Source of the DNA: Escherichia phage MIZ4
Sequence record: OR167180
DNA length: 64,000 nt
Strand: one strand, 5' to 3'
In this document: positions 17,966 through 18,799 of the stretch, piece after piece
Position numbering within the stretch: the first letter of the stretch is position 1
How the letters are laid out: each line of letters opens with the position of its first letter
Position numbers and translations under genes: made by a program
Notes under the pieces: generated by a model
Databases searched by the model: none
What the model saw: the letters and a program-made list of their open reading frames with translations, nothing else
What the model was told of the DNA's origin: nothing

Positions 17966-18799
17966 TCATTCTCCGTCAGTTCGTTTCAGATATTCCAATG
18001 CCGCATATAATCTCTGAGGATCGTCTTTGAACATCCCTAATCCGGCATTACATTTTCCACAAAGAACACCTCTTATCTTACCAGTCTTATGATTATGGTC
18101 AAGATGTTTCCACTTTTGGCGTTTTCTCACGCCGCATCGTTCATTTATGAATTTTACACCGCATATCTCGCAATTGTCAACTCTGCCTAAAATTTCTAAC
18201 GCTTCTCTTTTTGATATTTTTATACCATTTTCGGCATGATGATATGGCCTATCTAGTTCTCGCTCTCGCTTCTCAAACAATCGACACTCATCAGAACAAT
18301 ACTTTTGAGATACGTTTATTGCAACAAATGGTTTACCACATTTAGCGCATTCTCGTTCAATCTTTATGTTTTGTGCTTGGTCCAACGATGCGCAACGAGA
18401 ACAGCAAAATTTATGATATCCTTTAGAGTATGTATGATAATTTACAGGATTTGGGCATCTTGCACATTTAACTATTCCTGTTATTCCGTGGCGCAATCTA
18501 TAAACAGCCTCGTTATATGGTTGTTGATTTCTGAGACCTCCATTACAGAACTTAAACTCATTCCTTATAATCTGAAATTCCGCAGGATACAATTTTTCCA
18601 TTTCTGGAATTTTATTTTCTTTAAAAAGATTTGAGTTTAGTCTATTTCCGCTTTTCGCCTCCAGAACATCAACAATAAACTTTTTGATGTTCACTTTTTC
18701 TCTCCAATACATAACATAACCATAACTTACTGCAACCGCCACAAAGACGGCTGCAACAATCATATTAAAAATTGAGTGATTGTCAAGTATATGACTCAT
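17966..18799 (-). CDS. Membrane-anchored Cys-rich protein with endonuclease VII-type HNH motif
   Basis: N-terminal TM helix ([20 protein letters not shown]); multiple CxxC clusters; C-terminal [25 protein letters not shown] resembles the EndoVII/HNH His-Cys box. Confidence 0.55.
   Translation of the reverse strand: [277 protein letters not shown]

Follow-up and report, generated by a model that had tools for sequence, protein, structure and literature searches.

A membrane-anchored nuclease ORF beside the topoisomerase gene of a Krischvirus is probably a membrane peptide gene joined by accident to a predicted DHHRN homing endonuclease gene

In the window (the whole 64,000-nt stretch of phage DNA that was analysed), an ORF of 277 codons next to the topoisomerase gene seems to encode a nuclease with an N-terminal transmembrane (TM) helix. 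A sequence-only reading had described a membrane-anchored, Cys-rich HNH nuclease of the endonuclease VII (EndoVII) type, either a degenerate homing endonuclease or a factor in exclusion or DNA entry. Does this locus encode a membrane-tethered nuclease, or something else? The 277-aa product was found at 17966..18799 as that reading had placed it, on the minus strand (no strand had been given). The gp39 (60+39) gene at 16136..17959 does abut the nuclease ORF, and a separate canonical gp49 EndoVII is indeed present at 53947..54420. The analysis below indicates that the feature is most probably two genes joined by accident, ORF006.1 and the gene of a 242-aa DHHRN free-standing homing endonuclease. 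The features of the locus are listed here.

17966..18799, minus strand: 277-aa ORF, uninterrupted from ATG to stop
17966..18694, minus strand: predicted homing endonuclease gene proper, 242 aa, GTG start at 18694, TGA stop at 17966-17968
18695..18799, minus strand: ORF006.1, codons 1-35 of the fused ORF (36 aa in relatives), encoding a single TM helix
18707..18769, minus strand: TM helix segment, residues about 11-31 (Kyte-Doolittle)
18692..18705, minus strand: junction tract GGAGAGAAAAAGTG, with Shine-Dalgarno sequence, A5 run and GTG start
17960..18709, minus strand: inserted cassette of 750 nt, from the alignment of occupied and empty sites
18392..18466, minus strand: Zn ribbon 1 (C112, C115, C133, C136; 277-aa numbering)
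18284..18349, minus strand: Zn ribbon 2 (C151, C154, C168, C172), CxxC...Cx3C pattern
17984..18178, minus strand: beta-beta-alpha-metal nuclease domain with the EndoVII/DHHRN motif
17273..17959, minus strand: diverged "allele B" block, the 5' 687 nt of gene 39 (topoisomerase II large subunit)
18796..18969, minus strand: gene 39.2, the upstream neighbour, 57-aa zinc-ribbon protein (Pfam Zn_ribbon_8, E 1.6e-11)

Residues 1-30 of the 277-aa ORF matched phrog_25974, a separate family of 36-aa phage proteins (E 1e-21), and one strongly hydrophobic segment (residues about 11-31) was found, with a maximum Kyte-Doolittle mean of 2.02 over 19 aa. The N-terminal TM helix that had been noted is therefore present in the 277-aa ORF, but it belongs to ORF006.1 and not to the nuclease. 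ORF006.1 is a separate 36-aa CDS (phi1p006.1 / RB49p006.1) in genomes with and without the homing endonuclease gene (HEG-plus and HEG-minus), and it was unchanged in the 46 Krischvirus records without the nuclease. All Krischviruses have this conserved single-pass membrane peptide of 36 aa; a hydrophobic homologue in L020 showed a conserved protein with many synonymous changes. The TM peptide gave no PADLOC match. Its flanks are net negative before the helix and net +3 after it, and by the positive-inside rule any fused nuclease would be expected to sit in the cytoplasm. On the upstream side, the stop codon of gene 39.2, which is annotated as 57 aa in MIZ5, RB49 and Phi1, overlaps the ORF006.1 start (ATGA).

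The junction between the two genes was compared among the Krischviruses that carry the nuclease, and in 11 of these 12 genomes the TM peptide (36 or 43 aa) and the 242-aa nuclease are separate ORFs. The allele GGAGAGAG-A5-GTG (36 aa + 242 aa) was found in G5211, G2248, FL04, PHB13, E26, MIZ6 and JEP8, and was assigned to MIZ2 and MIZ3 by inference from the same 2003-nt span, while GGAGAGAG-A4-GTG (43 aa + 242 aa) was found in JK32 and Skers. The fused allele, GGAGAG-A5-GTG, occurred in the allele table only in the window and MIZ5, which are identical here. DNA alignment showed that the mechanism of the fusion is a single GA indel: the window is one GA unit short in the GGAGAGAG-AAAAA tract, and this 2-bp loss puts the TM ORF and the nuclease ORF in frame. 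The junction tract is hypervariable, with three tract-length alleles (0, -1 and -2) among isolates that are otherwise about 99% identical. In the protein-cluster table, 14 of the 15 listed members had 242 aa, on about 90 contigs, and the 277-aa form was on two contigs of one submitter batch (WNA15185 and WNA14918); an exact-protein look-up of the 277-aa form returned MIZ5 alone. The gapped junction pattern had no matches in IMG/VR or JGI metagenome contigs, and the allele frequencies are those of the isolates and the protein-cluster table.

The normal allele has ORF006.1 ending in ...WREKK-TGA, with the nuclease GTG overlapping this stop (GTGA) behind a GGAG Shine-Dalgarno sequence. The fused ORF retains both the GTG at 18694 and the GGAG sequence, so that translation of the soluble 242-aa enzyme remains possible. 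All 12 occupied Krischvirus genomes have an intact 242-aa ORF beginning at this GTG, and the homologues in VR7, RZ, L020 and L021 share the aligned start (MNLKQFI / VDIKKFI / MDIKQFI), with ATG as the start codon in L021 and the Gapriverviruses. The homologues in Gaprivervirus, L020 and L021 have no TM segment, and outside the MIZ5 lineage no homologue polypeptide contained one. Whether the fusion is real or an artefact, the nuclease is a separate 242-aa gene, and the "membrane-anchored HNH nuclease" is an annotation-level result of a 2-bp indel joining neighbouring genes. A promoter scan gave 11 sigma-70-like sites against 7.2 +/- 3.0 expected; one 11/12 match (18786..18759) lies within ORF006.1 upstream of the GTG and is suggestive only.

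Three other explanations of the fused ORF were weighed. The indel may be an assembly or base-calling error at the low-complexity (GA)n-A5 tract, in which case the real MIZ5 tract would be GGAGAGAGAAAAAGTG, with two ORFs. This would agree with an indel placed within a repeat tract that has three length alleles in nearly identical genomes, and with the two-ORF allele of MIZ2, MIZ3 and MIZ6, which are sister isolates from the same laboratory. However, homopolymer errors would less typically remove an entire GA dinucleotide than produce the A5-to-A4 change of JK32 and Skers, and two separate genome deposits contain the 277-aa protein; we consider an artefact unlikely. The fused allele of these two genomes may be genuine, inherited and expressed, and the fused protein may have some effect. 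The sequence-only reading went further and proposed a membrane-tethered EndoVII/HNH nuclease that would attack superinfecting DNA or act in DNA entry or exclusion. An uninterrupted fused ORF in the window and both deposited genomes is consistent with this, as is the charge pattern that would hold the nuclease domain in the cytoplasm at the membrane. However, the tether hinges on one GA-unit deletion in the MIZ5 lineage only, whereas 11 other genomes and about 90 contigs have separate ORFs; homologues of other lineages lack the TM segment and start at the internal GTG or ATG; ORF006.1 is the same where the nuclease is missing; and the only PADLOC match is a type II restriction-enzyme model. These comparative sequence data largely refute a tethered enzyme, which appears extremely improbable. 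It is very unlikely, too, that the tract works as a functional switch. In the common allele, ORF006.1 ends ...GAG AAA AAG TGA, with the slippery-like sequence G_AAA_AAG directly before the stop, and the nuclease is in the -1 frame relative to ORF006.1; low-level -1 frameshifting by ribosomes on G_AAA_AAG, or polymerase slippage on (GA)4A5, would then yield some membrane-tethered endonuclease (...WREKKVNIKK...). If this were true, the window allele would hard-wire the tethered product, and the tether could keep a toxic nuclease in check or bring it to the membrane-associated site where a co-infecting genome replicates or enters.

The nuclease itself was examined by profile search. The C-terminal EndoVII box was confirmed by PF02945 Endonuclease_7, which matched residues 208-272 with 58.4 bits (cutoff 23.6; E 6.5e-16). 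No HNH-family Pfam matched at E<=1, Endonuclease_7 being the only one, and the HNH label had to be dropped: the enzyme is of the same beta-beta-alpha-metal superfamily as HNH nucleases but not of the HNH family proper. The EndoVII motif is without the central Asn of H-N-H (Fang et al. 2018, PMC6083498). The Cys-rich character held, with five CxxC motifs and one Cx3C making three four-Cys sites. The third of these, C210/C213/C247/C250, provides the Zn ligands of the nuclease domain, and the family alignment showed that the catalytic/metal residues D234, H235, H237, R243 and N251 are present. In that alignment the DHHRN and Cys columns were invariant except for C210 (C175 in the 242-aa form), at least 90% conserved. 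The dN/dS of the nuclease gene was 0.09-0.12, which indicates purifying selection, and with all DHHRN catalytic and Zn residues in place the gene is not degenerate, as had been suggested. Purifying selection is expected also for an actively homing endonuclease.

The published DHHRN criteria are D, H, H, R and N (T4 EndoVII D40, H41, H43, R54 and N62) with CX2-4C and CX2C (PMC6083498), and the protein has the D, H, H, R and N together with C210-x2-C213 and C247-x2-C250. Members of the endonuclease clade of Fang et al. 2018 have the motif at the C-terminus, and here the EndoVII motif occupies residues 175-216 of 242; likewise, the protein gave no full-length gp49 alignment and the genome has a separate resolvase. 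Placement in this clade was made through the homologue VR7 gp6 in the published tree (Fang et al. 2018). Judged by these residues, the nuclease belongs to the known DHHRN (EndoVII-motif) homing-endonuclease family.

The data for the N-terminal part were less uniform. For Zn ribbon 1, the Pfam matches to YacG and Zn_ribbon_recom were weak and below threshold (both E 0.025), Foldseek matched YacG (4tma_K) with a probability of 0.89 over 35 aa, and three of the four Cys were invariant in the family alignment; this ribbon is presumed to be a YacG/FCS-like treble clef serving as a DNA-recognition module. Zn ribbon 2 was kept in the full-length homologues covering the region, P0003 being without it. 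A PADLOC search for defence or exclusion systems gave a type II restriction enzyme (Hpy99I-like) as its sole match, and this REase_II (Hpy99I-type) alignment (residues 123-274, E 2.7e-10) spans Zn ribbon 2. The PDB sequence matches were Hpy99I (3fc3, E 1.3e-9, residues 197-274) and T4 EndoVII (1e7d, E 0.006). Hpy99I was also the top Foldseek match (probability 0.99), and matches beyond Hpy99I and YacG were noise. The AlphaFold model was moderately confident (pLDDT 73, pTM 0.44) because the word-indexed homologue search gave only eight proteins; the N-terminal part may bind DNA.

The nuclease was then compared with known systems. The orthologues in the Gapriverviruses VR7 (gp6, VR7ORF006c), VR26 and RZ were 40-48% identical over the whole 242-aa protein. 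VR7 gp6 has the same N-terminal start motif, conserves Zn ribbon 2 and the DHHRN domain, and lies directly upstream of gene 39; its Zn ribbon 1 Cys pattern is only partly conserved. It differs in coming from another genus and subfamily, and in being preceded by a terminator hairpin and a TATAAT-like element, without translational coupling to a small TM ORF. VR7 gp6 was predicted to be a free-standing homing endonuclease (Fang et al. 2018, PMC6083498). Matches were also obtained to LUZ24 gp35 and to Yersinia phage DNA polymerase inserts, which are listed by the same authors (Fang et al. 2018, PMC6083498). Through these matches, VR7 gp6 and the published family definition, the protein is linked to F-CphI (ORF177 of cyanophage S-PM2), the founding member of the DHHRN homing endonucleases, which acts by Mg-dependent sequential nicking (PMC6083498). 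F-CphI likewise has a C-terminal EndoVII motif (CX2-4C, D-H-x-H, R, CX2C, N), and its free-standing gene, too, lies beside the gene that it targets, psbA. However, F-CphI is smaller, its EndoVII motif aligned at residues 71-129 and its target is the psbA intron insertion site, whereas the present protein has an N-terminal region of about 170 aa with two extra Zn ribbons.

Hpy99I, the best solved-structure match, is also a beta-beta-alpha-metal nuclease with a Cys4 Zn site and cuts duplex DNA sequence-specifically. However, it is bacterial and methyltransferase-paired, and the similarity does not extend to the N-terminal parts (TM-score 0.19-0.24). T4 endonuclease VII (gp49) shares the catalytic motif and the Zn-binding cysteines, but has an N-terminal motif and a dimerisation domain that the present protein lacks. 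With T4 MobA and the seg/mob genes, the present gene shares the form of an intergenic cassette, a sporadic distribution, the use of the host gene's transcription unit and, probably, flank co-conversion. MobA, which has a GUG start, targets gene 39, the topoisomerase large-subunit gene, and the free-standing T-even endonucleases are intergenic, often promoter-less cassettes that cut some way off from where they are inserted and give rise to co-conversion and marker exclusion (PMC2988022). Whereas MobA is a canonical HNH enzyme with an N-terminal nuclease domain, encoded at the gene 60/39 split, the present gene is of the DHHRN type, has a C-terminal nuclease domain and lies at the 5' end of an unsplit 60+39 gene.

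Next, the distribution of the nuclease gene was analyzed. Of 58 Krischvirus records, 12 have it, each time directly upstream of gene 39, a position common to four lineages; its absence from the other 46 shows that it is dispensable. Alignment with G37-3, Phi1 and RB49 showed that the cassette puts 750 nt in place of 13 nt (AAGAGGTTTAATA) with precise boundaries, and that it brings a new ORF006.1 3' end and stop, the endonuclease gene and a new gene 39 ribosome-binding region (GGAGAATGATATAAT). RB49 is 100% identical up to window position 18710 and diverges after it. At the empty sites ORF006.1 overlaps the gene 39 start directly, and the nuclease gene thus lies, sporadically, between genes that are adjacent in relatives without it, as a free-standing HEG does. 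An Rfam E-value scan of 15000..21000 gave no group I intron or other structured RNA, so the gene is free-standing and not intron-encoded. The GC content of the cassette was 0.32-0.39 against 0.40-0.47 in the flanks, slightly AT-richer but not diagnostic.

The 5' part of gene 39 that abuts the cassette (about 690 nt) was about 24% diverged between genomes that are otherwise 96-100% identical. The window and E26 differed from GEC-3S, RB49 and Phi1 at 168-172 nt in gene 39 nt 1-690, with 41-42 non-synonymous codons; beyond nt 690 the divergence was 1-4%, and the other 11 kb or so were 96-100% identical. E26 (HEG-plus) and GEC-3S (HEG-minus), which are assigned to the same species, were 66-85% identical over the first 690 nt or so. 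A linked diverged flank is a classic signature of homing, and the allele B block is likely a co-conversion or immunity tract. This mosaic boundary is of the kind that marks a free-standing HEG; however, the HEG-minus phage G37-3 carries the same block, so it is not exclusively tied to the endonuclease. Allele B could instead be a pre-existing resistant allele, or could reflect HEG loss and not co-conversion. The window and E26 share the block boundary (about nt 687), which would fit one old recombination that spread later as well as repeated homing. Upstream of the HEG in L020 there is probably a remnant of the gene 39 5' end, 14 codons long; among 1791 null windows, 2 scored as high. No consistent common target signature was found in gene 39 between the HEG-plus genomes of Krischvirus and Gaprivervirus; the VR7 gp39 N-terminus is T4-like.

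These data suggest how the cassette may spread. During co-infection, the enzyme would bind a specific sequence of endonuclease-less relatives through its N-terminal helical region and two Zn ribbons, with the target most likely in or near the 5' end of gene 39, and would cut it with the Mg-dependent D-H-H-R-N active site. Recombinational repair from the HEG-plus genome would then give the recipient the cassette and, with it, the neighbouring 5' part of gene 39. Site-specific cleavage, this target and current mobility are thus what we infer from sequence. Of the functions that had been suggested, homing endonuclease is the one that the DHHRN residues and the mobility signature favour. Homing endonucleases cause marker exclusion of the alleles of co-infecting phages, and exclusion may hold in this ordinary sense, but a role in membrane exclusion is without support, and nothing supports a function in DNA entry.

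Two other functions of the nuclease were considered. It might be a domesticated or non-mobile site-specific nuclease that derives from an HEG and persists because it serves the phage and not for its own spread: it might act against competing related phages, take part in processing near gene 39, or attack host or foreign DNA in the manner of a restriction enzyme. Strong purifying selection (dN/dS about 0.1), a type II restriction enzyme as the closest structure and PADLOC match, and a stable position across diverged lineages would all suit this. However, the selection is equally expected under active homing, 46 of the 58 Krischvirus records lack the gene, no methyltransferase partner adjoins it, and the precise cassette boundaries and linked diverged flank argue for a mobile element; we regard domestication as distinctly unlikely. 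A second Holliday-junction resolvase, paralogous to gp49 / T4 endonuclease VII, would share the Endonuclease_7 domain and catalytic residues, but it is the least probable of the readings. The likeness to the window gp49 was limited to a 38-aa motif (14/38 identical), which is C-terminal and not N-terminal, and the EndoVII C-terminal dimerisation region was unmatched, the PDB EndoVII match covering residues 230-260 only. Moreover, a canonical gp49 is already present, most Krischviruses lack the nuclease, and VR7 gp6 falls in the endonuclease clade and not in the resolvase clade (Fang et al. 2018).

A type II restriction-modification enzyme of the Hpy99I kind was also tried as a candidate and was rejected, as no methyltransferase was found among the neighbours (39.2 zinc ribbon, DexA and gp39 topoisomerase). 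To our knowledge, gp49 is universal in T4-like phages.

Without correction, the MIZ5-type 277-aa "hypothetical protein" could pass for a new architecture. Read as a free-standing DHHRN gene, the locus is a clean and tractable coliphage case of a predicted homing endonuclease of this family, in which, as far as we know, F-CphI alone has been characterised biochemically. Natural HEG-plus and HEG-minus isolates of the same species exist (E26 and GEC-3S; MIZ6 and RB49), the cassette boundaries are sharp, and the linked block, about 690 nt long, falls within an essential topoisomerase gene. T4 MobA and this gene together point to the topoisomerase large-subunit gene as one that selfish nucleases have targeted repeatedly in T4-like phages.

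The window, whose source is a Krischvirus (an RB49/Phi1-like T4-type coliphage), was 100% identical to MIZ5 over the 2 kb compared. The features around its 277-aa ORF were as follows.

Features of the window
17966..18799, minus strand: 277-aa ORF, ATG to stop
16136..17959: unsplit gp60+39 topoisomerase II large subunit, downstream neighbour of the 277-aa ORF
53947-54420, minus strand: canonical gp49 (EndoVII)

The 277-aa ORF contained five CxxC motifs and one Cx3C motif, which form three 4-Cys sites, and its C-terminal box matched the Pfam profile Endonuclease_7 with 58.4 bits (cutoff 23.6, E 6.5e-16). 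These data bore out the Cys clusters and the EndoVII-type box described in the sequence-only reading, and its placing of the gene beside the topoisomerase gene and of gp49 elsewhere was also correct. The Pfam search of the protein matched no canonical HNH profile. The observation is sound at the sequence level, and its odd feature, the membrane anchor, is by comparison with relatives a fusion of two genes in one lineage.

A strong hydrophobic segment was present at residues ~11-31, as had been claimed, but a PHROG scan placed residues 1-30 in the family of a separate gene (phrog_25974, 36 aa, function unknown; E 1e-21), and the remainder matched 'endonuclease VII' families. Two CDSs are annotated in G5211, MIZ6, JK32, FL04, PHB13, E26, G2248, and Skers, namely a 36- or 43-aa ORF (phi1p006.1 / RB49p006.1, here ORF006.1) and a 242-aa endonuclease. 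The DNA alignment of the relatives showed one difference only, at the GGAGAGAG-AAAAA-GTG tract. In the majority allele, ...TGG AGA GAG AAA AAG TGA terminates ORF006.1, and the nuclease GTG, preceded by a GGAG Shine-Dalgarno sequence, overlaps this stop. One A fewer in JK32 and Skers gives 43 aa plus 242 aa, while one GA fewer in the window and MIZ5 gives the in-frame 277-aa fusion; all genomes compared had an intact 242-aa ORF starting at the GTG (window 18694). The protein-cluster table gave 242 aa for 14 of the 15 listed members (~90 contigs), and the 277-aa form was recorded for two contigs whose accessions belong to a single submission batch. The claimed membrane-tethered nuclease thus did not hold, since its anchor results from a gene fusion confined to one lineage. 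The GA deletion may be a real mutation or an assembly error, but the conclusion is the same either way. We consider it very improbable that the G_AAA_AAG-TGA tract supports -1 frameshifting and so lets a small amount of tethered enzyme arise naturally.

ORF006.1 with the same TM core was also found in 46 records having no nuclease, where it ends ...YVMKRFNNE-stop and overlaps the gene 39 ATG. In L020, a metagenomic T4-like phage contig, a diverged homologue kept the hydrophobic peptide despite many synonymous changes. ORF006.1 therefore seems to be a genuine gene of its own, encoding a small membrane protein. The tract at 18692-18705 (also in L004 and L012) reads (GA)n-A5, with three length alleles among isolates ~95-99% identical over 2 kb. 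Each allele gives ORF006.1 another tail (WREKK-stop, WREKSEHQKV[HY]C-stop, or the fusion), which suggests that the C-terminal tail of the TM peptide is unconstrained.

All full-length homologues of the nuclease share the start M/V-[ND]-[IL]-K-[KQ]-F-I, which aligns with the window GTG.

Full-length homologues
VR7 gp6: 231 aa
RZ: 235 aa
VR26: same N-terminal start motif
P0002, metagenomic contig L021: 76% identity
P0004, contig L020: 60% identity

No TM segment was found in these five homologues. The start codon is ATG in L021 and the Gapriverviruses and GTG in L020, and the TM ORF upstream of the L021 nuclease is in a different frame from it, as in the two-ORF relatives. On this alignment, the start position of the homologues fixes the true N-terminus of the nuclease.

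All residues defining the DHHRN family (Fang et al., 2018; PMC6083498) were found (D234, H235, H237, R243, and N251, numbered in the fused ORF), as were the Zn ligands C210/C213/C247/C250. None of these columns varied in the family alignment apart from that of C210, with conservation in at least 90% of sequences. As in the 'endonuclease clade' of that study, the motif lies at the C-terminus. Among solved structures, the nearest was that of Hpy99I, a restriction enzyme with sequence specificity (E 1.3e-9), whereas T4 EndoVII matched more weakly (E 0.006), and the resemblance to the window's own gp49 was a 38-aa motif match. Foldseek with an AlphaFold model (pLDDT 73) also returned Hpy99I (probability 0.99) and likened one Zn ribbon to the YacG treble clef (probability 0.89); the sole PADLOC match was a type II REase model. 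The nuclease domain also matched LUZ24 gp35 and insertions within DNA polymerase genes of Yersinia phage, which are classed as intron-encoded members by Fang et al. (PMC6083498). By these residues and matches, the nuclease is intact and falls, as an uncharacterised member, into a known family of homing endonucleases, and its locus is already flagged in the literature via VR7 gp6.

Zn ribbon 1 (18392-18466) resembled YacG, which inhibits the gyrase (GyrB) of E. coli, below threshold in Pfam (E 0.025) and with 34% identity over 35 aa to 4tma_K in Foldseek, and its gene adjoins that of a GyrB-like topoisomerase subunit. A generic DNA-binding treble clef of the CxxC...FCSxxC type is the probable explanation. 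The window gp49 has RGLLHSCCNRLEG where T4 has RGLLCNLCNAAEG; its second Zn-binding pair is H-x-C-C and not C-x-x-C, a different arrangement.

The nuclease gene was present in 12 of 58 Krischvirus records. Compared with the empty sites of G37-3, Phi1, and RB49, 13 nt (AAGAGGTTTAATA) were replaced by 750 nt, with exact boundaries from ORF006.1 codon 30 to the gene 39 ATG. Besides the nuclease gene, this cassette supplies a new tail and stop to ORF006.1 and a new ribosome-binding region to gene 39. Homologues in Gaprivervirus and two metagenomic lineages likewise lie directly upstream of gene 39. T-even free-standing seg/mob endonuclease genes are intergenic cassettes using existing transcripts, and their products cleave away from their own insertion site, with co-conversion and marker exclusion following; T4 MobA also has the topoisomerase gene as a target and a GUG start (PMC2988022). 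The properties seen at the present locus, which bear the signature of a mobile element, match this established pattern. The nuclease ORF had a dN/dS of 0.09-0.12 within Krischvirus, and across lineages pS was saturated with pN 0.15-0.27. Judged from these ratios it is under purifying selection. Of the earlier suggestion of a 'degenerate homing endonuclease', the family stood but the degeneracy did not.

The nuclease-bearing window and E26 were 96-100% identical over 12 kb to nuclease-free GEC-3S, which is assigned to one species with E26, save in the 5' part of gene 39. There, identity fell to 66-85% over the first ~690 nt (168 nt differences, 41 non-synonymous codons), and divergence returned to 1-4% beyond. 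Two points qualify the homing reading of this block: G37-3, which has no nuclease, carries the linked gene 39 allele, and the block boundary shared by the window and E26 could reflect one old recombination event. In L020, a 14-codon stretch like the gene 39 N-terminus (MAEEFHLLTNKEHV, 2958-3002) lies between ORF006.1 and the nuclease, with an intact gene 39 downstream; an equally high score occurred in 2 of 1791 control windows. This stretch is probably what remains of a gene 39 5' end and may mark the entry point of the cassette, and its position upstream of the nuclease hints that insertion or repair occurred no more than ~45 nt into gene 39. The gp39 proteins of VR26 (L008) and VR7 (L010) were 72% identical at residues 1-229 and 89% at the remaining residues, against just 54% for the endonucleases upstream; by this comparison the Gapriverviruses have the same gene 39 mosaic pattern as Krischvirus.

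A second endonuclease polymorphism was seen on the 3' side of gene 39 (window equivalent ~15771-16151). An HNH_3-type 'putative HNH endonuclease' lies directly 3' of the gene in G5211 (L001 5668-6231) and G37-3 (L005 4030-4264), and the window and MIZ5 have another small ORF there. Between the window and G37-3, 15 mismatches were clustered at the 3' end of gene 39, in its final ~40 nt (nt 1785-1818), with almost none upstream, which looks like another co-conversion edge.

The mechanical ORF list was overlong for gene 39.2 (18796-19050, minus; 84 aa vs 57 aa annotated) and dexA (18971-19711, minus; 246 aa from TTG vs 222 aa annotated). The starts annotated in relatives show tight ATGA-type coupling throughout the dda-dexA-39.2-006.1-HEG-39 operon (HEG, the nuclease gene). 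Within the coding sequence of ORF006.1, two elements precede the nuclease GTG.

18786..18759, minus strand: sigma-70-like promoter TTGACA-16-TATGAT, 11/12, a consensus match alone
18759..18727, minus strand: imperfect 14-bp hairpin

Transcripts from this candidate promoter could encode the 242-aa nuclease and not ORF006.1 or the fusion, and in empty-site phages they could encode gp39.

We infer a homing mechanism in which a soluble 242-aa enzyme would be translated from the GTG, coupled to ORF006.1. The fused allele retains the internal Shine-Dalgarno sequence and GTG, and the enzyme should still be translatable from it. In mixed infection, its N-terminal helical region and two Zn ribbons would let the enzyme recognise a sequence in genomes that lack the endonuclease, and a Mg-dependent beta-beta-alpha-metal site would do the cutting. 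Through recombinational repair, the nuclease gene and the adjoining part of gene 39 would then be copied into the recipient.

All comparative data run counter to a purpose-built membrane nuclease. A paralogue of the resolvase is contradicted by the architecture of the protein and by the gp49 already present. A domesticated nuclease is less likely, given that phages can do without the gene and that it lacks a methyltransferase partner.

The membrane anchor reading falls, and the nuclease itself belongs to a known family. The result serves as an annotation correction for the 277-aa ORF, and the locus is usable as a tractable coliphage model of DHHRN homing.
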